Assembly: GCA_000091205.1 (NCBI GenBank)
Contig: AP006491.2
Reading direction: 5' to 3' (one strand)
Source of the DNA: Cyanidioschyzon merolae
Taxonomy: Eukaryota
DNA length: 64,000 nucleotides
Shown here: piece by piece, positions 12,371 to 63,293 of the stretch
Layout: the number at the start of each line of letters is the position of its first letter
How positions within the stretch are numbered: position 1 is the first letter of the stretch
Made by a program: the position numbers and the translations under genes
The notes under the pieces: model-generated
What the model was told of the DNA's origin: nothing
Databases searched by the model: none
What the model saw: the letters and a program-made list of their open reading frames with translations, nothing else

Positions 12371-12709
12371 TGTTGGACCGCAGGCCATACTATTACCCTC
12401 TGTGAAGACGAACATCCCACTTCTGGGTTTCACTCGAGCGGAGCGAATGCTTCCCGCTCGGGGCATGCATCGGCACGTACTCCATGCAGCGCGTTGCGCA
12501 GCCGTCGTAGCACTGGCGCGCAGCTCGTTGGATTGTGAACTGGACATCGGGGCGCTGCGCGCTGCGCGCCAGTGTCCAATCTCCGGTAGCATGATGATCG
12601 CTGGATGCGTCCAGGCCAGGCGAGCGTGCTCATCTCCGTACGTGCGCAGGCGTGTGTGTCTGGATGTGCGTACATACTTTTTGCTGGAACGCCGGTTATT
12701 AAAGGCCGC

Positions 12710-15016
12710 ATGTCTGCTGCAGGTTTCCCTAGAGTTTCGACGGCACTTTCCGCCGCGCTGAGGTCTAGGGGAGCACAACGCTGTGGAAGAGTATGGTGGG
12801 CGAGGGCGCCATCGCAGAGCTTGCGGGTTCTGCTTCGGAACTACACACCAAGTCTGGGTTCTTTCGGGCTACGGCGGCAGCTTTATCGTCTGGAGCGAGA
12901 AGCAGACTTGTACCCTGAAGATTGGAGAAAGCAGATGATACTCTTAGAACAGCTAAACCGAGAAGGATCTGTTCAAAGTGCCGAGAAAGTTATTCAACGC
13001 ATCGAATCCGGGAGGTATGCTCTCGGAGAAGAGGCAAAGTACGAGTACATCAAAGCCCTTGTACGAGTTGGAAAACTGGAGGAGCGGTCGAAAACTGGCG
13101 GTGGCCTCGAGTCCGTGTTGCGAAATATTCCAGGCTCTGGAAGTGTCCTTTCTCGAACTGGGAATAGTTCGGAAAGTGGTCGCCTTCCCAGAGGCGCTGC
13201 CGAGCCTCCGACTGCCGCGCGCTACACAGACAACTTTAACAGTCCTCTCCAAATGTATGCCGGTGAAGGCACGCACCCAACGAGCGCCGGTGCGACAGCT
13301 CCCTCCTCAGCGCGAGCGTTGATGGGAGGTGCCTCCGGCGGAGCGTCCGGCAGCACCGAGGAACCGCTTGTCGTCACCCTTGCTGAGCCTACCTTCAGGA
13401 CGCAACTGTGGAAAACGATCCGCACGCTTGGCACTGTATTTCTGCTAATGTCAGGAGTTGGTGCAGTTATGGAGGAGCGGGGCCTATCCCGAGGAATCAG
13501 TATGCAGCAAGAGGTGCTACCCGAAGAAGGCAACAAAAATCTGCGACGGTTCTCTGATGTGAAAGGCTGTGACGAGGCGAAGGATGAACTCATAGAGATA
13601 GTCGAGTATTTGAAGGCGCCACAGAAGTTTACGCGCCTCGGCGGAAAACTCCCCAAGGGCGTGCTTCTAGTCGGGCCACCTGGAACAGGCAAGACACTGT
13701 TGGCGAGAGCGATTGCGGGCGAGGCTGGCGTTCCGTTTTTCTACGCATCCGGCTCTGAATTTGAAGAAATGTTCGTAGGCGTCGGCGCTCGCCGCGTGCG
13801 GGAACTCTTTAACGCAGCTAAGAAGCGGGCTCCCTGTATCGTGTTCATTGACGAAATAGACGCAATAGGCGGCAAGCGGAACCCCAAAGATCAAATGTAT
13901 ATGAAAATGACCCTGAATCAGCTGCTTGTTGAGCTCGACGGATTTTCGTCCTCTGAGGGTATTATCGTGATCGGAGCTACGAACTTCCCGGAATCGCTCG
14001 ACAAGGCGTTGATTCGTCCGGGCAGATTCGATCGCCATGTTATCGTTCCGAACCCTGACGTTCGTGGACGAGAAGAGATCCTCACCCTTCACACCGAGAA
14101 GATTCCGCTTGCGGACGATGTGAATCTCGAAATACTTGCTCGGAGCACGCCTGGATTTTCTGGCGCAGATCTAGCGAATCTGGTGAACATGGCAGCTTTG
14201 AAGGCGGCCCGTGAAGGCGCTTCCCTCGTTACTATGGAGAACTTTGAGTTCGCCAAAGACAAGATAATCATGGGTGCCGAGAGACGCAGCGCAGTTATAT
14301 CAGAGGAAAACCGTCGTTTAACTGCTTACCACGAAAGCGGGCACGCGCTAGTCGCGCTCTTCACGGATGGCGCGCTGCCGGTGCATAAGGCAACCATTGT
14401 GCCGCGTGGCGTCGCTCTCGGCATGGTCGCGCAGCTCCCGGAAAAGGATATGACGTCTATGTCACGCAAACAGATGCTTGCTAAACTCGACGTGTGCATG
14501 GGCGGCAGAGCTGCTGAGGAACTGATTTTCGGACCTGAAAATGTCACGAATGGGGCGGAGTCTGATATAGAGCAGGCAACAGAGCTGGCAGAGGCAATGG
14601 TGACCCGCTTTGGTATGAGTCCCAAGCTGGGTAACATGGCTTACGACATTCAGAGGGAGGTATGTGGGGAGCTTCTGCACGTGGTGGAGAAGGAGGTCAA
14701 ACGATTTTTGGACGAAAGCTACCAGCGGGCAAAGCAAGTGCTGCTGACTCATGAAAAGGAACTCCATCGAGTGGCAGCGGCCCTACTGGAGAAAGAAACC
14801 TTGGGCCGGGAGGAGATCATTCGTATCGTGAGGGGCGATCCTCTCCGCGAGCAGTTGTCGGAGGAAACGACCGTGAAATCCGAAGAGGAGGCCGCCGACA
14901 CTGGCAGCCTGGCTGAAAACGTTGCAGCAAGAGCACGAGGCGCTGTCGCCGCAGCAGCGGCAAAAGCTGGCGTGCCTCGGCCTGGAAAAGTCCCGGCAAC
15001 AGCGAAAACGGCCTGA
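12710..15016 (+). CDS. ATP-dependent zinc metalloprotease FtsH, mitochondrial i-AAA YME1-like (768 aa from Met MSAAGF; ORF opens at 12605)
   Basis: N-terminal presequence-like stretch, a single TM ([15 protein letters not shown]), AAA Walker A GPPGTGKT, Walker [12 protein letters not shown] and SRH, zinc motif HESGHAL, and a YME1-type C-terminal helical domain. Confidence 0.92.
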
Positions 15017-45731: not shown

Positions 45732-46352
45732 TCACTGCGTTTCGAAAAAGTCAAGTGTTTGCCAACCGAGACGATCCCGAATTCGTTCCAAACGTTTTCT
45801 GTTGGACCCAAAGTCACCAAGCGGTTGATGGAAAGGATATATATAGGTGACCTTCTGTGACCTCGATCGGTAAAGTACAAGCTTCTCCTCAGGTCGGAGC
45901 AGAAACTCGATGTCGTCCTCGCCGCCCGGTGGAAATACACTCGGTGCAGTCGCATGTAGATAGAAACCATCCACTTCGCGGACAGCGACGCCAGGCTCCG
46001 CTCTTACCGCCGCCTCGAGTGCCGACCAGGCTTCTCGAGGACTATCAGTGACTGTAGCATACGACCACGGCGCGCCGTACTTGACGGGACTCCCGATTGC
46101 GGAAGAGGAGACACAGTTTTCTTCGCTGCCACAGCTCCCGAGCGACTTGATCTGCACCGCCGAGAAAATGCCACCATCGGCACTGGAAACTGGCACTCGA
46201 AAAGCCCCTTCAAGCGAAAGTGCAATCATGACAGCAGCGCAAGCTGACGATCGTCCCCAGGGAGTAGCGGCCGTGGCCGCTAGTCGGAAGCTGCGCCAGC
46301 TCCTGTGCAGGGCGAAACGGCGAGTTCTGACCCTGGAATTGACCACAAACAT
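45732..46352 (-). CDS. DUF1499-family protein with an N-terminal organelle-targeting-like extension (206 aa)
   Basis: Arg/Ser-rich N-terminus followed by ...LGSCGSEENCVSSSA, which resembles the DUF1499 CPxxPNCVSS signature. Confidence 0.45.
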   Translation of the reverse strand: MFVVNSRVRTRRFALHRSWRSFRLAATAATPWGRSSACAAVMIALSLEGAFRVPVSSADGGIFSAVQIKSLGSCGSEENCVSSSAIGSPVKYGAPWSYATVTDSPREAWSALEAAVRAEPGVAVREVDGFYLHATAPSVFPPGGEDDIEFLLRPEEKLVLYRSRSQKVTYIYPFHQPLGDFGSNRKRLERIRDRLGWQTLDFFETQ

Positions 46353-48346: not shown

Positions 48347-50332
48347 TCAACAGGGAGCCCTTTTTCTCGTCAAGTCGGGGTCACTGCTATCTGCAGCATC
48401 CTGTGGAGTATATCGCCTGCGGAAAAATATCTCGAGTTCCCTTGTCGTGAGCTGGCGAAACGTTGGACGCCCATGCGGACACGTGCGAGGTGCTTTCGTT
48501 CGGAGCCATTGGTCCACCAATGACTGCATCCTCTCTCGATCCAATTGCGTTCCGTTCTTCACCGCTGCCCTGCAGGCGAGAAGCGCTAAGCGATCCTCCA
48601 GACTGGATGCAGAACCGAGTGCTTGTAGCAGGAATTGCATCTTTCGCTCAGACTGCGACCTGGGGCAATCATTCTCAGGGTCTAGGAGTCCCGCTTCGAT
48701 GAACATTTGCGGGGCGCGTTCCACTTTCCATTCCAATGGACCGATCATGGTCATGTGGATGCCCAGGGATTCTCGCAGCTCCTCGACCTGAGCTTGAGCG
48801 AACAGACCTCGCATAATAATTGGTTCGCGGAGCTCGACAATATTACGCGCCAGAGACGTATACTGGTCCCTGTACTTTTCGTAGAGCACGCGTTCGTGTG
48901 CGGTATGCTGTTCAATAATCCAAATATCACCGCTCTCCATATTGGTGGCGATGATGTAGGTCTTACCAATCTGGGTCATGGCTTCGAGTCTGAGCAGCTG
49001 GTTACTTTGGGGTTCATCAGCGGCACCGTTTAAGGCGCCTTCTTCCATATCGATAAGTTTCCGAAGATAGGTCGATGCAAATAAGTCTGCGGCGGATACC
49101 TCTGATAGCGGCATCGAGAAGCAACGATCGATGCCCTCTCGAAGTTTCTGAAACCAGTACTCGGGGTCACGTAAACGCATCATAGTTTTCATCGGGTGAA
49201 TATTCCAATCGACATCTCTTCCAGGGCATCTTATGTGAATGAAGATTATCGGGAAGCGACCGGAAGGTAACGTGTGCTGCACATGGCTCAGCGCCGCGTT
49301 CACGAGGTCCGCGTTCTGTACAGCTCTACCGTTCACAGCCACAATGACCGCATCCGCCCGTGAGCGATGGTGCCCCCGGTCCGGATACCCGAGCACACAG
49401 AGGACTTGATCGCTAGCGAAAGCACCACACTCCTCAGGCGCAATTTCCATGATCTGACTAAACATGCGGATAAGGGCGTGCTTAGCTCGCTCTGTCTCCG
49501 ATTCCTCGTCAGAGAATTCAAGTTTGCCGTATAGGGTAAGAAGATTGCGTCCGCTATCTCGAACTCTCCAAGAAACGTTCGGATGGCATAAAGCCGTTGC
49601 GCGGACGAAGGATAGGAGCTGTTGCCGCAGCTGCCTCTTGTGCGGCATGGCGGAACGCCGCGGGGCAAACTGTTCGTCGCAAAAGAGACCAGTGACCTGG
49701 ACAATGGTTCCCTGGGGAAGGCCGACAGGCTCAACCGGTTTCGTTTCAACTTGTTGTGGGCTGTATTGAATCATGTAACCACAGGGGCTGGTCTCCCCTT
49801 TCGAGCGAACCTCAATACACGCACAGAGCTGGGATATTGCCCAGAGACCCTGACCTCGAAAGCCGAGTGTGTGCACCCGTCCAGCAACGAGCTGCTCCAG
49901 TGAGGCGAGCTTACTCGTCGCGTTCTGCTGAAGACAACGTTCAAGGTCATTTGGCCTCATCCCTCGTCCATTATCTCGTACGACGATATTGCCAGCATCA
50001 AAGTCGATGTCGATCTCCACCGCGGTGGCCTCCGCGTCCAGCGCGTTCTCGACGAGCTCTCGCACAGCAGCGACGGGGCTATCAATGACTTCGCCACTCG
50101 CTATTCGCTGAATGACCTCTGTAGGCAAGACGGAGATCCGCAAGGTCAACGGTACTGACCTCCTTGGGGATGTTCGTCGATAAACGGATCTCGGACAGAG
50201 CTTCAACGGCGTTGACGACCAAGGCTGCGCTGGGCTCAGAACAACCCGTCGTGATGATGCGTCGCTTTGCTGCAGCTTGCCCACGTTGCTCGAGATATGC
50301 TTTCTTCTGATGAAACAATATGATATGAACAT
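48347..50332 (-). CDS. DNA mismatch repair protein MutL homolog, compact bacterial-type with endonuclease motif and an N-terminal targeting-like extension (661 aa)
   Basis: GHKL ATPase N-terminus (VIQRIASGEVIDSPVAAVRELVENALDA, VRDNGRGM). C-terminal dimerisation domain carrying DQHA(x)2E(x)4E as EQHTAHERVLYE, and CPHGRP. About 55 N-terminal residues precede the conserved core. Confidence 0.85.
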   Translation of the reverse strand: MFISYCFIRRKHISSNVGKLQQSDASSRRVVLSPAQPWSSTPLKLCPRSVYRRTSPRRSVPLTLRISVLPTEVIQRIASGEVIDSPVAAVRELVENALDAEATAVEIDIDFDAGNIVVRDNGRGMRPNDLERCLQQNATSKLASLEQLVAGRVHTLGFRGQGLWAISQLCACIEVRSKGETSPCGYMIQYSPQQVETKPVEPVGLPQGTIVQVTGLFCDEQFAPRRSAMPHKRQLRQQLLSFVRATALCHPNVSWRVRDSGRNLLTLYGKLEFSDEESETERAKHALIRMFSQIMEIAPEECGAFASDQVLCVLGYPDRGHHRSRADAVIVAVNGRAVQNADLVNAALSHVQHTLPSGRFPIIFIHIRCPGRDVDWNIHPMKTMMRLRDPEYWFQKLREGIDRCFSMPLSEVSAADLFASTYLRKLIDMEEGALNGAADEPQSNQLLRLEAMTQIGKTYIIATNMESGDIWIIEQHTAHERVLYEKYRDQYTSLARNIVELREPIIMRGLFAQAQVEELRESLGIHMTMIGPLEWKVERAPQMFIEAGLLDPENDCPRSQSERKMQFLLQALGSASSLEDRLALLACRAAVKNGTQLDRERMQSLVDQWLRTKAPRTCPHGRPTFRQLTTRELEIFFRRRYTPQDAADSSDPDLTRKRAPC

Positions 50333-52878: not shown

Positions 52879-54675
52879 CTAGATGTTGATGTTGAACGAC
52901 ACACCAAGGTTCCCGGGCCCGACTCCGCTCGTGAACCCGTTCGGGCCCAGCAGACCCGCCTGCTCATCGGGTACCATGCTCAGCTGGACCTGCGTCCGGC
53001 CCTGCTGATGCAGCAGCGACATGTTCACATTCGTATCCGGAGGCCGGTACGCCAGCCCAATGTTCCAGTTGCCGAGCGCACCACCATACTGCTGCTGCTG
53101 AACCGCCTGCAGCTGCGCCTGCTGCAGCTGCATGTACTGCATTGCCTGACGCTGCTGCTCAGCCGCCTGGATCTGCACGTGAATAAGCTGCTTCCGCCGT
53201 GCAGAGATCTCCGCCATGGTCTGCTGCAGGTCGCTACGCTCATTCGCATAGGACCAGTCGGATCCGGGCCGCACGCTCTCCTCCGCCTCGCGCTGGAAAA
53301 GCGCATCCGCTGTGTAGAACGCAAAGTCGCCAGGAATCTCCTCAGATGAAGACGCAGTCTTAAAGTGCTGCAGCGCGTTCTCCCGAATTATCTGCAGCTG
53401 CTTCAGGAACAGCGACTGCAACGACGCATCGAGCACAGTCTCGAGCTCCGCCAGTTTCCGCTCGCGCACTTCAGTTCCCGCATACGCCTCCGTAGCCGAT
53501 TCAAAGCCACTCAGGTACTTTTGCAGAAGCTCCTCCGCCCGGCGTCCAAAACCACTGATCTTCTCGCCCTCGTCCAGTTGACTCGCAAGCTCCCCGAGCT
53601 CCTCGGCGCTGTTCCGAAGCGCCTCGGAGAAAGCGGCATCGCAGTGATACGCTGCTGCCAGTGCCTCTGGCGTGAGCGCTTCCCCAGCGGCTCCTTCATC
53701 CGCCGCCGCCGCCGCCGCCGCCGCCGTAGCGACACGCATGGCCAGCGGCTTCGCAGCACGCATCGCCCCAGCGGGCTGTGCACGAATGCCCTCCCAGAGG
53801 CGTCGACTGAAGGCACCGAATCCATCCGCAGGCAGACCCTTGCTGTATTGCGAGGACAGCAGGCCGCCATCGCCACTGCCACTGCCACTGCCGTCTAGGA
53901 GGTCCCGCCGCAGACGCTGCACAGCGGCGTCGTAGGCTGAACGCGACGTGCGCGGCGACGGCAGCAGAGCTACGCGCAGCTCGAGGGCAGCGCGCAGCGC
54001 CTCCACCGAGTGACTCGCTGCTGTCGGTGCTGATGCTGCTCCGTCGCCGATTTCGCGCTGCCAGTGCTCCTCGGCGTCCAGCCAGAGAGACTCCGCGATC
54101 AACGATGCAGTGCTCTCGGTGGTATCCGCGTCCGCGCCCGTATCCGCGTCTGCGTCGCGCACCACGAACACAACGCAGGTGCGCAGGAGAGGGCCCTCCG
54201 CGTGAGCCAACTCGCGCACGATCGTGCTCAAGTACCACTGTGGGTCTGCGTCGTAGCGTCCCAGGTCGTGGTACCAGACGTTGCACAGAACAACATCGGA
54301 CACACTGGACACGTAGCGGAGGCAGCGCTCCTGCAGCTGCTGCCCCGTCGCGCCTCCGTCCCCGCCGTCGATCTCCAGCACCAGAAGCGTCTCCTGGTTT
54401 GCTGCCAGTGCTGCAGAGACGCCGCGGGTCTTCCAGCGCCGACGCTCAGTCGCCCGCGCGTGCGACACCGCGAAACGCGTCCCGAAAATGTCATTCAAGA
54501 GACTCGACTTGCCTGATAGCGGGCTCCCGATGCACCCGACGACACGATAGCATTCAGCGCCGACATCGAGCTCGCTTGGGAACCAGGGCGTGCGCTCCAG
54601 CATCACGCCATGTTCATCAATGATCTGCAGCACGCCCGCTGGCGCACTGGCAGATTGCGCTGTTCCGTTGCTCAT
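52879..54675 (-). CDS. RHD3/Sey1-type dynamin-like GTPase. It is short at 598 aa, has no C-terminal TM segments, and has a Q-rich tail.
   Basis: N-terminal GTPase region VVGCIGSPLSGKSSLLNDIFGTRF with an RHD3 helical middle domain. Contains a poly-Ala run encoded by (CCG)8. Confidence 0.72.
   Translation of the reverse strand: MSNGTAQSASAPAGVLQIIDEHGVMLERTPWFPSELDVGAECYRVVGCIGSPLSGKSSLLNDIFGTRFAVSHARATERRRWKTRGVSAALAANQETLLVLEIDGGDGGATGQQLQERCLRYVSSVSDVVLCNVWYHDLGRYDADPQWYLSTIVRELAHAEGPLLRTCVVFVVRDADADTGADADTTESTASLIAESLWLDAEEHWQREIGDGAASAPTAASHSVEALRAALELRVALLPSPRTSRSAYDAAVQRLRRDLLDGSGSGSGDGGLLSSQYSKGLPADGFGAFSRRLWEGIRAQPAGAMRAAKPLAMRVATAAAAAAAADEGAAGEALTPEALAAAYHCDAAFSEALRNSAEELGELASQLDEGEKISGFGRRAEELLQKYLSGFESATEAYAGTEVRERKLAELETVLDASLQSLFLKQLQIIRENALQHFKTASSSEEIPGDFAFYTADALFQREAEESVRPGSDWSYANERSDLQQTMAEISARRKQLIHVQIQAAEQQRQAMQYMQLQQAQLQAVQQQQYGGALGNWNIGLAYRPPDTNVNMSLLHQQGRTQVQLSMVPDEQAGLLGPNGFTSGVGPGNLGVSFNINI
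53700..53723. repeat. (CCG)8 trinucleotide microsatellite inside the RHD3/Sey1-like CDS (encodes poly-Ala)
   Basis: Direct reading: ccgccgccgccgccgccgccgccg. Confidence 0.9.
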
Positions 54676-56370
54676 GGGCAGTGTTCAATGCTTCGCTGAA
54701 GGCACCTGGTGTCCCCACAGTTCAGCTCTGTACCGTATGAGGCTTTGTAAAGACTTGACTCCGATCCACTGTGAAGTGTATTCGGTTGGGTTCCGGGCGC
54801 AGCACTGCGTGGGACGCCGTCCGCGTTTCCAGCTGTGTACGCGTTTCTAGCCACAAGAGCGCTGCTCGCCACGGTAGTGACTCCGGTTAGGCGCGAGGTG
54901 ACAGCACGTGCGCACGTTTGGTGTTATTTGGGCAGAGTTCCCGTCAGCAGGCTGCTGTGCCTTTAGGGCTGGGCCTTCTGGCTGCGCTGCAAACCCAACA
55001 GGAAGCTGAACTGCCGCAGTGCGCTCGAGTACGCCTAGGTCGTTGCGGTGCGCGCCGGCGTGTGCTGCTCGCGCTCAGGGTAGTTGCCGTAGACCGCGCT
55101 GGAAACCAACTAGGCACGCGCCTCGTCGTCCTTCTACTCGCAGGGGCCTCCTACCGCACTGCGCTTCTCGCTCGCGCTGCAGACTCGGGTAGGGTTCCGC
55201 GGCGCCGTGCTCAGAATTCGCACAGGCTATGAAACCTTGGTGCCTGAGAGCACGAACCTGTCTCCAGATGCGGTCGGGGCTCACCGGCTCAACGCGCTGG
55301 TGCTTTCCTCTCTTGTGGGTGCGCGCACGCGTAACTGGTCAATAGTGCTCGCAAGGCGTGTTGGTATGCAGCCCCTTCAAACTCCCCGTTTCACCGGGCA
55401 GAGACTCGGACTCGCTCACGCGTTTATGATCTGCGTACCACGGGCAAAGCGTCGAGTTGCACGCGCACCTAGCGCTCGAAGCTATCTATAAGAAAAGAAT
55501 GTTCACGACACAGCGCGACGCTAACGGCGACGTCCTGCAGCCTGGAGTCGTCTGCGCGCAGCCAGCGGTCATTTGGCGACGGCGGGGCGGGCGACGCGGC
55601 GGCTGCGCGCTGGTGCAGCGCCCTGCTGGTGTCCGTATTGTCGCAGAGCGCAATCGCCGCACCAGCGCAAGGCGCGCGCATCCCAGCGGCAGTGCACGCC
55701 ATCACTCAGGCAGGCAACCTGGCGCATCGTGCAGCGCACCCAGCGGCAGCGCACGTCTGTTGCCCATCCAGCTCGCTGAGCCTGTGAACGGCCAGGCCGC
55801 ATGCCGGACGCTTCGGGCGCGCGCCTCTCGCGATTCGCACGAGCGTTCCGTTTCGACGCGAGACGTCGACACTCGCGTCAGCACACGGTGAATTCCGCGT
55901 ACTGGACAGCATAAGGAGACGCTCGCTCTCGCTTGCTGGAGCCGTGTGCAGCGCACAAGTTGCGCAGCAGAAGAGCTGTCTTGTACAGACCGAGACAATA
56001 TCCGATACGTCGAGCAAGCCACAGAGCTGCCGGAAATACACAACGAGGAAGCAGTGTCGCGAGCTGTTATAGCGCTACACCTGACACGTCGAGCCTCGGG
56101 GGTGCTACGACCTGCACGAGGGCAACGACGGCGCACGGCATAACAAGCACGGGTAGACGGGTGCTGGGCACGTTCGGCTTGCTGCGACGCTGGTAGGAAC
56201 CGAACGGGGTGCTCGTACTCGCACCGCTCGCCACTCAGGGTCGCGATCGACACGAGAAGCGCCCACAGGGGAAACGATGGCACCACGAGCGCTGGACGCA
56301 TCGTCGGTGATCTCGGAACCGCTGACACTGCCGCTGACGGGCCGCGCCGCACGAGACCGGGACGCACTCT

Positions 56371-57531
56371 TTGGAGCAAGCGCGGGCACTGCGCCTAACC
56401 CTGCGCCTGTGTCGAGGCGCAAGCAGCCAGTCGCTGGTGCGGAGAAGCGCCCCGCGGCCCGGCCGACCGTTGAACGGAGCCGCTGATGCGGCCGTTCGCG
56501 GGCTGGAAGTCGCAGGGGAAGCGGCTCCACCTTCCACATTCGCAGCAAGCACCAGTGCGCCGGACGCCGAGCTGTTGCAGAGCCGCCAAACTCAGGTTGA
56601 GCAGCTGCGGCGCCAGGCTACGGACGCTGCGCTGCGGGGGCGTCAGTCATCGCGCCGGGCGCTGCAGCTTGCACGAGAGGCGCGAGCGATAGGCGTCGAC
56701 GTTACCATGAGGCTGGGCGAGCAGGACGAACAGCTGGATCGCGTGCAAAACGATCTGGACGAGATTCACGGCCACCTGACGCACAGCGACGAAATCATTC
56801 ACGACATGCAGAGTTTCTGGAAGAAGATGTGGCCTTGGGCGCGCGATCGGAATCGGCGGCACGAGCGCTACGCCCCGGTGCTGGGGGCAGACGGGCCCTC
56901 GACGTCAGCGACGCGGCACGAGATTGCATGCCTGCAGCGCCAGCGCGAGGCGGGGACACTGAACCTGCGGGAACGGCCGCCAGCTGCTTGCTCGTCTGAG
57001 CGTTCGGCGGATGAAGCGCGAGCAGCTGACGATGCGCAGGTCGGGTCATCGCCAGGGTCGGTACCGGCGCACGCGCTTCTACAGGACGCGGTGGATGGCG
57101 AGGCGGCGTCGCTCGATGGCGACAGCGAGCGTCGGCGGGGTCTGCTCTCGTCGCTGCGGCGCGTAACGCGGCGGGTACGCGGCGTCGACGAGCCCGAGGA
57201 CCGTGTGCGGCGCGAGCGGGCTGCGCTGCTCGCAGAGGGTACCGCTCCGACGGCTGCTGCTGGTGCTGCGGCAGCGTCGCCTGCGGACGCAACCGAATGC
57301 GCGGATGCGTCTGCGCAGGCCTCGGCGGCGCCGTGGGAAGAGCACGTTCAGGCACAGGATCGGGACCTCGACGAGCTGAGCGTTGTGGTGTCGGACCTGC
57401 GGACGCTTGCAGTTGGCATCGGAGAGCAGGTGCGCCACCAGAGCACCAAGATCGACGTGATTTCGAAGGACGTGGACTATGGGCGCGAGCGCATCCACGA
57501 GAATAACCGTCGCATTCGACGCATGCTCTAG
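56371..57531 (+). CDS. SNAP25-family Qbc-SNARE (two SNARE motifs; SNAP33-like), 386 aa
   Basis: Qb motif ...RRALQLAREARAIGVDVTMRLGEQDEQLDRVQNDLDEIHGHL... and a C-terminal Qc motif ...IGEQVRHQSTKIDVISKDVDYGRERIHENNRRIRRML, with a long low-complexity linker. Confidence 0.65.
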   Translation: MEQARALRLTLRLCRGASSQSLVRRSAPRPGRPLNGAADAAVRGLEVAGEAAPPSTFAASTSAPDAELLQSRQTQVEQLRRQATDAALRGRQSSRRALQLAREARAIGVDVTMRLGEQDEQLDRVQNDLDEIHGHLTHSDEIIHDMQSFWKKMWPWARDRNRRHERYAPVLGADGPSTSATRHEIACLQRQREAGTLNLRERPPAACSSERSADEARAADDAQVGSSPGSVPAHALLQDAVDGEAASLDGDSERRRGLLSSLRRVTRRVRGVDEPEDRVRRERAALLAEGTAPTAAAGAAAASPADATECADASAQASAAPWEEHVQAQDRDLDELSVVVSDLRTLAVGIGEQVRHQSTKIDVISKDVDYGRERIHENNRRIRRML

Positions 57532-60500
57532 AGCTACGGATGTGGCGGCAGCGAATGCCGCCGCCACTGCCGCCGCCGCCGCCTGGACGCACGCACGCAC
57601 GCAGGTGTCTGTTCGTGTGCGCGGTGCGTGCGATCGAGGCCTGTATGTGAGGCCGGCGAGCGCTGCTGTTGTGTTTGACGGGAAGCGCGAAGCGCTGCAT
57701 GCGCGCAGCGCCTCATCGATCTCATCGAACGATGGACAGGCGCGCTTGCGCACTGTACGCCAATGCGGGAGATGGAGGATGAGCGGTGAGGCCAGGAGCG
57801 CCTCGGTGTCTTCGGGGTGCGTCTGGGGTGCAGAGCTGCGAGGCAAGCGGCTGGCGCGTCCAACGCGAGATCGTTGTGTGTCAGTGTCGGGCGTTTCGTG
57901 GCGTGACTTGGCGGTGCTTCAGGGAGTTATCCACGTGCGAGGTATCCGTTGTCGATCGGCGGAGGACGCTGGTTCTGGTTCGCGCTTCTCTCTGTGCGTC
58001 ACTGAGACAGGGGGCGGTACTGCATGGCATCGATATTTAATACCTGGATTGGCTGAATCACTTGAAATGAACTTCTGACCTGGCATTAGTCTGTGCGCCT
58101 CCAGTCCTGTTTGATAGACCATGATTGAATTGGATCCGATGTGAATGGGCAGAAGTGACTGACTCTATGAAGTTAATGATAAGACCTCACCCGCTGATCG
58201 AAGTTTTCGGTCAGTGAACACAGTATCTGTTCTAGCGGGGGGTCTTATGGGTTGAAATATACTCTGAGGAGTGAATTCCGGACCGAATGTAGCAGCACGT
58301 CCTCTTTGATTTTTATGTGTCTCTTTCGCAGGTATCCGACATAAGGAAAGTGTCACGCGGGCTGGAGAAAGGTCGCGGGACGTTTTATGCTGTTACTGCT
58401 AGTTTGCGAGAAAACATTCTTACTTGTCTATATCAGTTATTCAACGCTGAGTAGCTGGATAATCCACTCTTCTCGTCGTCCCTGTTCCGAACGTCGTGCA
58501 CCCAAAACGGTGCTTGACAGACGCGATCTACTCGACCCTATCATCGTCGATCCATTCTACGCCGTAACTTCTCTACGAAATGCGACTAGACAAGCCACAG
58601 GATGGCACGTTGCTGTACGGTCCGTGCGAACAGTAATGAAGTGCCACGGATGGATGAAGAACGAAGCGCGACTCTAGAGGAGAACACTGCGCGTTGAACA
58701 GCACGCCAGCGATTTAGCACGGAAACGCGAACGCGTATGCCGGGATTGACCGATGTTTGTCTCGGTCACCCTCGATGGGAGATTATGATGGGGGTCTATG
58801 TGGTATTCCTCCATATGCGTAATGCAAGACAGGGGCTAACCAGTATCCGTCAAGAAGAGACAAACAGCGTGCATGACAACGACACAAGTCCTACTGGCTT
58901 TGCTATCATCGTGTGGTCACTTCCATATCGCCAAACGGACTAGTCCGTTCAACACCTCGTGCACCATCGAAACAGTGTTTGGCTTCACCGCCTCACGCAT
59001 GCTTTTGTCCTGCTCTTTGACAACGTCGGTTTTCATCGCTCATGAGCGTTCAGGGCGCACACCGCTGGGGCTGCTGTTCAGCTGCGCTTCATACCAGCAT
59101 CGATATCCGGGTTCAAGGCAGTCGAAGGCGTCATCTGTGTTGCGGAGCGTCTTTTGCGGACTGGTGGATCAATAGACGAGTCGTTCGGATCTGTGGCCCC
59201 GTTCTTCGACGAATCTTTCTGTACGAGCCTCACCAGCGCTGAACAGCTCTGCTGCTCGTATGCTGTTGCGCAGCAGGGGGCGGAAAGGCGCGCGTCGGTC
59301 CGCGAGCACACTCGCGACAACGAAGGCGACCACGAGGTGCATAAGGAGAAATAGACGCACACGTCGATAGGAAGTGTGGGCTTCAATTCCGCCGCCCACC
59401 GTGTGCGTATGGACTCTCAGGGAAAAAACGTAGACGAACTGCCGCGAACGCCTGTTTGTTGTCGCACCAAGTTTCGGCGAAGGACAGGATACCAGGGACA
59501 CGGAGGTGAACGGTCCTCCAGAAGAGACGGCGAGCAGGTACCGGAAACAGACACCTCTGGAGCGGAAAGTCGAGTCTGAGCCGAACACCACGGCCGCAGT
59601 ACCGAACACACATCGTTTGGGAGGATCTCCCAGACAGTGCGGTGCAGGGTGCCTTGGCTAGTCGCGTGGCGTCTTTCTAGGATACGGTAGGCCTAGTGTC
59701 TCTCGCTTTGACGCCCCTCGTCAAGCAGTAGTTTGTTGGAGTTCCGGATGCGAGGCTGAGCTGCCAGCGATGCACATTCTGCGGGAATACTTGAATCCAA
59801 CCTTCGTGCGACGACACAGCTGGTACTCGGGACACAAGATGCACTGGGGCCTGATCGTGGAATCCGAGGACACCACAAACGCTTCCCAGCAAATACCCTG
59901 AGGTGTCGCTGCGCCAGTTCGGCGCTCGTGATATCGTCAGCGCAGGAGCAGAAACGTATGAGAAAATTACCGTCTAACGAACCGGAATCGTATGCGAGTC
60001 CGAGTCGAGCGCTGCATGAGGCGCATACTGTGTCCGTTGGGCCCGCTGTAGCTTCGCTTTACGAGTGGCGAAAATTGGGGACGGACACGAGCGGTATTTG
60101 GAGTGCGGCTGGAGACTGCGGACGAGCTGGCGGTGGCGGAAGAAGCCGAAGCTGTAGCGAGTGCGGAAGCGATCTCGCAAGGAGCGCGAGACTCGCTTCA
60201 GAGTGTCGGAGCATATCGAGTTAGTCTTGGCCTCGAGGTTACGGAAGTCGTACCTGGGGGCTGGTTGGAACGTGATGTCTGTCTGCGTTTCATCGTGGGG
60301 TAGAAGGTTTTCCGGAACAAAGCCCTGCAGAGCAAAGCCGACTACCTCATCGAGTGCGAGCGCCCTAGCCGCCTCAAGCATCTATCTGGTGTGATCCGCG
60401 TATCTCAGATCAAGGCGCATGACCGCACCGTAGACGCCCGTAGAGTGTATGACGGCAGGGATGAGCGACCACTGGTCTCTGAAGGCTGTGACGACACATG

Positions 60501-62324: not shown

Positions 62325-63293
62325 TCATGCCAATTCTTCTTTATCGCGAATCCAGCCCAACGAAGAAAGCAAACCAACGCTCGTAAATAGTCCTTTCCTC
62401 GAAGCACGTCCTCGACGCCCAACCCGCGGCAACACTCTTGTGATCATGTACACCGTGTACCCGACGTAGACTGCTAGACCTGCATAGGCTATAGCGCCGA
62501 AAGAATCCCGCGTTAGCGCTCCTTGGAGTAGCATTCCAACATGAACATTATAAAAGTCAAAGGGTGGTTCAAGCCAGGCTGCACATTGCGGGTCGCTCAG
62601 TAGTTCATTCGGCGCGATGGTAAGGCATCGCAATGTGCTTAGTTGCGTGACAGCACCCGCGAGCGCTAAAATTGTTGCCAAGGGCCTCCATAACAAAAAG
62701 AGGCGCTCTAAAGAGCGTCCCTGGGTTGCGGAGACTCTAATTTCTTCTTCGAGATCACGCCACCAAAATAATGAGATTGGGATCATTACTTGCGCGACAA
62801 GCGCCGTCAAAAAGCCTATTGGCTGTTGCGCGATGTTAAAGAAAACAGTCAGCATGAGCATAGAGCTCGCTTGCCAGTAGCCAACCATAAGTCGACGGAG
62901 CGCTTCATGCGCGTCATCTTGCGTGAAGCTGCCGAAAAAGATCCCCAGAGGCGCCACAACGAAAAGCGGCACGGCTAGCTCGAAGTCCAGCCATACGAGA
63001 GTGCGCAACGCCGCTGGAGTGGCCTCGTTCAGCACAGTCGCAATCACAGGAGCACCTAAGAGAGTTGCTCGCAGAGCACGCCCATTACGTGGGCCTATGC
63101 GTTTCCGCCTGGAATCCGCAGGAGTGTAACGCCAAGCTACAGATCTTCTCACCGGTGACGTGCGTGAGTTACACAAGCAAAGCTTTTGCTGTTTGTGTGC
63201 GCCGTCTGCAAAGCTAAGCTCCTTTCCCTCAAAAGCTTTCTGATAAGTTGCTGCACTAACGAAGAACACTCTTTGAATGAGGCTGTTTGACAT
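62325..63293 (-). CDS. conserved multi-pass membrane protein of unknown function (322 aa)
   Basis: At least five hydrophobic helices (VWLDFELAVPLFVVAPLGIFFG, MLMLTVFFNIAQ, LVAQVMIPISLFWW, LATILALAGAV, AYAGLAVYVGYTVYMI). Clean ORF. Confidence 0.45.
   Translation of the reverse strand: MSNSLIQRVFFVSAATYQKAFEGKELSFADGAHKQQKLCLCNSRTSPVRRSVAWRYTPADSRRKRIGPRNGRALRATLLGAPVIATVLNEATPAALRTLVWLDFELAVPLFVVAPLGIFFGSFTQDDAHEALRRLMVGYWQASSMLMLTVFFNIAQQPIGFLTALVAQVMIPISLFWWRDLEEEIRVSATQGRSLERLFLLWRPLATILALAGAVTQLSTLRCLTIAPNELLSDPQCAAWLEPPFDFYNVHVGMLLQGALTRDSFGAIAYAGLAVYVGYTVYMITRVLPRVGRRGRASRKGLFTSVGLLSSLGWIRDKEELA

Follow-up and report, generated by a model that had tools for sequence, protein, structure and literature searches.

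Does bacterial-style mismatch repair work inside the plastid of a red alga? The question is raised by a MutL gene at 48347..50332 on the minus strand of a 64,000-nucleotide stretch of Cyanidioschyzon merolae contig AP006491.2 (assembly GCA_000091205.1), the whole of which was analysed and is here called the window. Plant and algal organelle genomes mutate slowly, and their proofreading is only partly understood: green plants rely on the fusion protein MSH1, and red algae have been reported to carry a cyanobacterial-like MutS1 and MutL. With a probability of roughly 0.7, the evidence points to a nuclear-encoded MutL nuclease that descends from a cyanobacterial mutL, most simply via transfer from the plastid ancestor, is imported into an organelle, most probably the plastid, and acts together with MutS1. 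We infer the import, the organelle, the MutS1 partnership and the nicking from sequence comparison and from published work on related proteins. The gene is already annotated and its class has been published for red algae; what the scan of the window delivered is a correct reading, not a discovery, and the remaining value of the locus lies in localisation, activity and repair without a known clamp.

Gene model, catalytic motifs and family placement

The original prediction, made from the DNA sequence alone, had reported a MutL open reading frame (ORF) of 661 amino acids (aa), and the ORF exists exactly so: it is intact, intron-less, begins with ATG and ends in a stop codon at 48347..48349. In an exact-sequence look-up its product matched C. 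merolae 10D XP_005536335.1 / BAM80049.1 / UniProt M1V7S5, and BAM80049.1, an identical 661-aa model, carries the label "probable DNA mismatch repair protein". Models of 593-600 aa deposited at JGI begin at a TTG codon (Leu62) and were rejected as artefacts of prokaryotic gene callers. The gene and its functional regions are the following:

48347..50332, minus strand: complete MutL precursor gene, 661 aa (ORF and exact database match)
49103..50143, minus strand: N-terminal ATPase region, residues 64-410 (Pfam, alignment, AlphaFold2)
50033..50059, minus strand: motif I of the GHKL fold (fold at residues 88-200)
49958..49975, minus strand: GHKL motif II
49844..49864, minus strand: GHKL motif III
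49124..49375, minus strand: transducer domain, residues 320-403, with Lys382
48992..49102, minus strand: inter-domain linker, residues 411-447, about 37 residues (AlphaFold2)
48413..48991, minus strand: dimerisation/endonuclease domain, residues 448-640, Pfam MutL_C (Pfam, 3gab alignment, AlphaFold2)
48878..48913, minus strand: metal-binding endonuclease motif EQHTAHERVLYE, residues 474-485, aligned with DQHAAQERIKYE of Bacillus subtilis MutL
48569..48577, minus strand: ACR motif, residues 586-588, B. subtilis SCK (3gab alignment)
48464..48481, minus strand: CPHGRP motif, residues 618-623 (3gab alignment)
48416..48424, minus strand: FxR motif (FRR), residues 637-639 (3gab alignment)

Pfam assigned HATPase_c_3 to residues 88-200 (E=6e-14), DNA_mis_repair (PF01119) to residues 320-403 (E=2.2e-18) and MutL_C (PF08676) to residues 453-597 (E=2e-11), the last over 142/142 profile positions. 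The NCBIfam MutL equivalog NF000951 gave 436.1 bits (cut-off 391) and TIGR00585 gave 313.6 bits (cut-off 180). The GHKL motifs are present as ELVENALDA, DNGRGM and GFRGQGL, plus G208-T209. Without exception, the 34 aligned sequences from algae and cyanobacteria carry the ATPase residues E92, N96, D120, G122, G124 and G157-G160, the transducer lysine K382 in HPMKT, which in this family contacts ATP, and the endonuclease residues E474, Q475, H476, H479, E480, C587 and C618-P623. Aligned with the C-terminal domain of B. subtilis MutL (3gab), DQHAAQERIKYE is replaced by EQHTAHERVLYE, SCK by ACR and FKR by FRR, and CPHGRP is retained. The endonuclease motif is a variant in which D is replaced by E and A by T, and this E is common to every aligned cyanobacterial MutL. 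AlphaFold2 modelled both domains with confidence, including residues 448-640, and the only part of the linker predicted to be disordered lies at about residues 432-445. As far as these alignments can tell, all ATPase and endonuclease motifs are intact and the protein is of the endonuclease type, and the motif at 474-485 and the CPHGRP at 618-623 bear out what had been read from the sequence at the outset.

The family placement was addressed by a homology search of 5.8 billion proteins, of which the best 120 matches were listed. A C. merolae-like metagenome cluster matched at 100% identity (two substitutions) along the 91% of the query that aligned, followed by Cyanidiococcus yangmingshanensis (62%), Cyanidium caldarium (39%) and two further Cyanidiales relatives (58% and 38%). 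Among the matches listed, four other Cyanidiales sequences were the only close eukaryotic relatives, and all remaining named matches were cyanobacterial MutL proteins with 33-38% identity over 87-88% of the query length. When a profile of the five algae was used, scores fell from 901 to 456 bits, with no further eukaryote among the best 120. The best 80 prokaryotic loci were nearly all titled cyanobacteria, with a few entries named "uncultured bacterium" and none from another phylum; this set held one genome per species and was retrieved with patterns of cyanobacterial flavour (EQH[ITV]AHER), so its composition is not an independent result. A neighbour-joining tree of 549 columns (100 bootstraps; 5 algal and 77 cyanobacterial sequences, with E. 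coli MutL as the only outgroup) grouped the five algal sequences at 100% and placed them as sister to the 77 cyanobacteria at 72%.

Membership of the eukaryotic MLH/PMS families was ruled out. Scores to solved structures were 109 bits for the MLH1 N-terminal domain, 60 for that of PMS2 and 29 for the C-terminal domain of yeast PMS1, far below the 334 bits to cyanobacterial MutL, and the linker has only about 37 residues. The original prediction had called the protein bacterial-type and had named a place within MLH3/PMS1 as what would speak against it; the structure scores do not put it there, and the matches, the tree and NF000951 make the type cyanobacterial.

These results agree with published work. 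A eukaryotic mutL branch associated with Cyanobacteria has been described, and red algae are reported there to have held on to a "chloroplastic mutL" (Hofstatter & Lahr 2021, PMC7884376). Chloroplast-type mutL is reported to be retained in red algae only, and eukaryotes are not known to have a mitochondrial MutL (PMC7884376; PMC11275761). The red-algal gene has been discussed as the partner of a cyanobacterial-like MutS1, with a proposed site of action in the plastid (Sloan et al. 2024, PMC11275761). While transfer from the plastid ancestor is the simplest source of the gene, a free-living cyanobacterium could, with lower probability, have passed it horizontally to the Cyanidiales ancestor at a later time, and the topology of the tree is compatible with both. 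Cyanidiales are known to have taken up prokaryotic genes; only the five Cyanidiales outranked the cyanobacteria, with no other red alga, glaucophyte or member of the green lineage in the best 120; and green algae and glaucophytes are reported to be without a cyanobacterial-like mutL (PMC7884376, PMC11275761). On the other hand, identity to all cyanobacteria is uniformly low, and the distances from C. merolae to them are alike (1.18-1.43), so that no donor lineage stands out. The algal clade also lies outside, not inside, the 77 sampled cyanobacteria, a position that is not decisive, as attraction of the long branch to the E. coli root could produce it as well, and published trees treat the gene as derived from the red-algal plastid.

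The genomic setting is that of a nuclear gene. The MutL gene sits on a contig of 810,151 bp, and its neighbours in the window are eukaryotic: a proteasome Rpt-type ATPase, an FtsH protease, a phosphofructokinase and a CTLH/RING E3 ligase, and further a GT90 glycosyltransferase, a DUF1499 protein, an RHD3/Sey1-like GTPase and a DUF3177 protein. The order RHD3-like / MutL / DUF1499 is kept in Cyanidium caldarium, and the order MutL / DUF1499 / GT90 in a metagenomic relative. Given the eukaryotic neighbours and the recurring gene order, MutL is a stable resident of cyanidialean nuclear chromosomes and not a contaminant; bacterial contamination was ruled out by the 810-kb contig, these neighbours and the synteny across genera.

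The N-terminal leader and its probable destination

The conserved core of the protein starts at about residue 64, which is the alignment column where cyanobacterial MutLs begin. What precedes it is:

50144..50332, minus strand: N-terminal leader, residues 1-63 (MFISYCFIRRKH...), a putative transit peptide for an organelle, in which residues 2 and 7 are Phe (alignment, composition, AlphaFold2)

An extension of about 55 residues resembling a targeting peptide had been proposed for this gene; the extension is present, and its length is corrected to 63 residues by the cyanobacterial alignment. It contains 12 Arg/Lys, one acidic residue and 15 Ser/Thr, giving a net charge of +11, and Ser, Thr, Arg and Pro make up 30 of the 63 residues. 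Among 5385 windows of 63 residues taken from the other long ORFs of the window, none matched the leader in net charge, acid poverty and S/T/R/P content together. AlphaFold2 gave residues 1-66 a predicted local distance difference test (pLDDT) score below 50, with no secondary structure apart from residue 58.

An in-frame TAG lies two codons 5' of Met1, which rules out a longer ORF and, without splicing, the upstream exon that the original prediction had considered as a way of removing the extension. The next Met is residue 125, within the GHKL fold and beyond ATPase motifs I and II, and an internal start in C. merolae was likewise rejected. Because of the upstream stop and the position of Met125, a eukaryotic ribosome makes an intact enzyme only with the leader attached. 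From its sequence, the leader is basic, acid-poor, obligatory, predicted to be unstructured and targeting-like, in agreement with the targeting-like extension read at the outset.

All five orthologues can encode a leader of 55-84 aa with a net charge of +11 to +13. In Cyanidiococcus there is no ATG at the start of the core, and a basic leader of 55 aa is encoded. Three orthologues were modelled from the Met of "MRV"; their upstream frame is open, with in-frame Mets at -63, at -65/-101 and at -69/-84, respectively. The leader of the closest of them begins MFLYPYSCFSIR, compared with MFISYCFIRR in C. merolae, and the leaders are otherwise unconserved between orthologues, as is typical of transit peptides. 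The public models concerned (L001 1119, L003 3987 and L004 4001, including the NCBI model for Cyanidium caldarium) begin at this internal Met and omit the basic extension. Probably the three models are truncated at the N-terminus, or else the genes allow a leaderless isoform.

A product without any organellar address, either a fifth, nuclear or cytosolic, MutL homologue whose leader acts like a nuclear localisation signal, or a bacterial contaminant or mis-annotated ORF, can scarcely be credited. The basic clusters RRKH and RRTSPRR are readable as such a signal, and prokaryotic callers applied to metagenomes start at TTG Leu62, without the leader. These TTG starts are caller artefacts, however, since a eukaryote requires the ATG at 50332 for an intact ATPase; the gene lies inside the 810-kb eukaryotic chromosome with synteny kept across genera; and the nuclear set is already listed as present, Mlh1, Mlh2, Mlh3, Pms1, Msh2 and Msh6 being marked in the Cyanidioschyzon row of the published table (Malik et al. 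2008, PMC2488364).

Concerning the organelle, Phe has been described as characteristic of rhodophyte transit peptides, and recognition by PTF GTPases is affected when a C. merolae transit peptide loses its residues 2-13 (Baek et al., PMC9407449). In C. merolae, DnaB, DnaG and gyrase of cyanobacterial origin were located in the plastid only, and plastid and mitochondrion differ in most of their DNA machinery (PMC3914683). The leader features, the Phe precedent and the plastid-only location of these enzymes, taken together, make plastid import the most likely fate of the protein as judged from its sequence.

Import into the mitochondrion, or into both organelles, is unlikely by comparison, despite several points in its favour. 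The leader is rich in Arg with almost no acidic residues, and the hydrophobic moment is as high as 0.54-0.58 in the leaders of some orthologues, values like those of mitochondrial presequences. Dual import has precedents in POP and LIG1 of C. merolae, which are dually localised (PMC3914683), and for MutS1 proteins of Archaeplastida the TargetP predictions were a mixture of mitochondrial and plastid ones (PMC11275761). The leader of C. merolae itself, however, has a low hydrophobic moment (0.30), is long for a presequence at 63 aa and begins with Met-Phe as rhodophyte plastid transit peptides do (PMC9407449). The plastid-only location of the tested enzymes (PMC3914683) and the lack of any traced mitochondrial MutL (PMC7884376) also argue for the plastid.

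Partner, activation and the C-terminal tail

The following mechanism is proposed for a plastid-directed MutL. The 661-aa precursor would be made in the cytosol, and its basic, hydroxyl-rich, Phe-initiated leader of 63 residues would direct import into the organelle, most probably the plastid, before being removed. The mature protein of about 600 aa would then act as a MutH-independent homodimer of bacterial type, recruited by a mismatch-bound MutS1 of cyanobacterial type. The GHKL N-terminal domains would close on ATP binding, and the metal site of the C-terminal domain (E474/H476/E480, C587, C618/H620) would nick the strand to be excised. An organellar mismatch-repair role with a MutS1/MSH1-type partner had been put forward in the original prediction; sequence and literature support the role, and the partner to be expected is a standalone MutS1 and not the MSH1 type (PMC11275761). 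Red-algal MutS1 resembles the standalone bacterial protein and has the standard bacterial architecture (PMC11275761). Within the window no ORF was long enough for a MutS besides the FtsH gene and a 685-aa ORF without MutS domains.

The two remaining features of the C-terminal part concern activation and the tail:

48821..48838, minus strand: VELREP, residues 499-504, at the position of B. subtilis QEMIVP, with Gln and [LI] missing (3gab alignment)
48350..48412, minus strand: Cyanidiales-specific tail, residues 641-661, ending in Cys661 (alignment)

Bacterial MutL endonucleases depend on the beta clamp, and B. subtilis MutL is activated through binding of its QEMIVP to this clamp.

Several observations weigh against a plastid repair nuclease of this kind. 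In the 3gab alignment, VELREP stands in place of the clamp motif Qxx[LI]xP, and the organellar replicase POP is processive alone, with no accessory protein known (PMC4166229). In the absence of this motif and of any clamp or accessory factor known for POP, both the bacterial activator and the strand signal are missing from the C. merolae system, and its weak point is therefore activation and strand choice. Function may have shifted in the algae, as their branch is long (2.38 from E. coli, compared with 1.84 for the cyanobacteria). An ATG stands exactly at the start of the mature domain in three orthologues, where a leaderless product is possible, and the leader annotated for Cyanidiococcus lacks Phe throughout its first 17 residues. 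A MutS1 of C. merolae itself is so far a presumed partner, and no publication was found that names the MutL locus or tests its localisation or activity. In the literature retrieved by the locus tags CMI305C-CMI315C, only PTF1 (CMI311C) turned up, and a Pyropia high-light paper and a haem-proteome paper mention only the nuclear PMS1 and MSH5.

Some of these points fit an organellar MutL whose main role is not post-replicative mismatch correction, but the policing of recombination or gene conversion among plastid genome copies, or service to another MutS-family partner. Without a clamp-binding motif or a known organellar clamp (PMC4166229), replication-coupled strand discrimination has no obvious basis, the MutL branch is accelerated in the algae, and a reference cited within 10.1101/2025.09.02.673837 has Thermus MutL stimulating the nuclease activity of MutS2. 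We regard such a role as improbable: the residues of ATP hydrolysis and of the endonuclease metal site are all invariant, which would fit retained canonical nicking; red-algal MutS1 keeps its bacterial architecture (PMC11275761); and MutS2 is now assigned to ribosome rescue (10.1101/2025.09.02.673837). The cyanobacterial homologues likewise have no canonical clamp motif at the aligned position, and judging from this alignment its absence may be ancestral.

As for the tail, the last residue of each of the five Cyanidiales MutLs is an invariant Cys, which follows a variable tail of 15-34 residues (alignment columns 743-774), and cyanobacterial MutLs end instead in a conserved ...WVIGKSHGI. The C-terminal Cys of MLH1 completes the metal site of PMS1. 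The algal Cys recalls this arrangement and may offer a lead, no more. On a bolder and quite doubtful reading, MutS1-MutL repair in Cyanidiales plastids would be clamp-independent, with the tail Cys folding into the metal site in convergence with the Cys of the MLH1 'FERC'; if true, this would be a new way to regulate or activate the nuclease. The invariant terminal Cys and the missing canonical clamp motif are small new points of this analysis, together with the gene order beside a PTF-type import GTPase gene, which is conserved.

Neighbouring genes and comparison with known systems

Directly upstream of MutL, at 52879..54675 on the minus strand, lies the gene for a 598-aa RHD3/Sey1-like GTPase (BAM80050.1) with a Gln-rich C-terminus and without a transmembrane end. 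It belongs to the PTF family, members of which bind transit peptides in C. merolae plastid import (PTF1 = CMI311C, PMC9407449). A paralogue of more than 90% identity, BAM80068.1 (597 aa), lies on the same chromosome, and either copy could be PTF1. The adjacency of this type of GTPase and MutL is kept in Cyanidium caldarium (L004).

Downstream of MutL, at 45732..46352 (minus strand), a DUF1499 protein is encoded with an N-terminal extension of about 70 aa beginning MFVVNSRVRTRRF, in which position 2 is Phe and the first 50 residues include 8 basic ones and 1 acidic one; its style is like that of the MutL leader, and it can be used as a nearby point of comparison for C. merolae transit peptides. 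Further candidate organelle-targeted proteins of the window are the FtsH protease (12605..15016, plus strand, 803 aa), which has a long N-terminal extension and no acidic residue in its first 50, and the DUF3177 protein (62325..63293, minus strand, 322 aa), whose domain starts at residue 97 after a long N-terminal extension with three acidic residues in the first 50. The region 54000..58000 is G+C-rich (0.63-0.67) and has long overlapping ORFs on both strands, of which the antisense ones are probably artefacts of composition. The ORF at 56371..57531 (plus strand) resembles a SNAP-25-like protein with two SNARE motifs, though its V-SNARE_C match is only weak.

[quoted passage not shown] The gene might also reveal how the strand to be cut is chosen where no sliding clamp is known.

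Among known systems, the closest is the chloroplastic mutL published for red algae (PMC7884376, PMC11275761), and the C. merolae gene belongs to the same class. The published treatment is limited to phylogenetic placement; added here are the obligatory leader, the status of the motifs, the missing clamp motif, the terminal Cys and the synteny. With cyanobacterial MutL the protein shares the three-domain architecture, the short linker and the E-Q-H variant of the endonuclease motif. The alga differs by its 63-aa leader, by an acidic insert of about 15 aa in the N-terminal domain and another insert, of about 12 aa, in the C-terminal one, by 5 additional residues ahead of the clamp-motif position, by the variable tail ending in Cys in place of ...WVIGKSHGI, and by a much longer branch.

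The endonuclease of B. subtilis MutL (3GAB/3KDG/3KDK) is the mechanistic model for MutH-independent nicking, and its DQHA(x)2E(x)4E, SCK/ACR, CPHGRP and FxR motifs align with the algal ones residue by residue; in contrast to it, the alga has VELREP, and its organelles have no known clamp. Eukaryotic MutL-alpha (MLH1-PMS1/PMS2) is similar in its GHKL and transducer N-terminal domain, and the endonuclease motifs are shared with PMS1/PMS2. However, it is a PCNA-activated heterodimer with long linkers and a separate, Asgard-related origin (PMC7884376), and its similarity to the algal protein is much weaker. Finally, plant MSH1, a MutS joined to a GIY-YIG nuclease, can be seen as a functional analogue, as it provides nuclear-encoded, organelle-targeted mismatch surveillance of non-host origin. 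It differs in being a single polypeptide of another protein family, which the Viridiplantae gained by horizontal gene transfer and which is present in various other lineages too (PMC11275761), whereas red algae are reported to possess a separate MutS1 and a cyanobacterial-like MutL in its place (PMC11275761).

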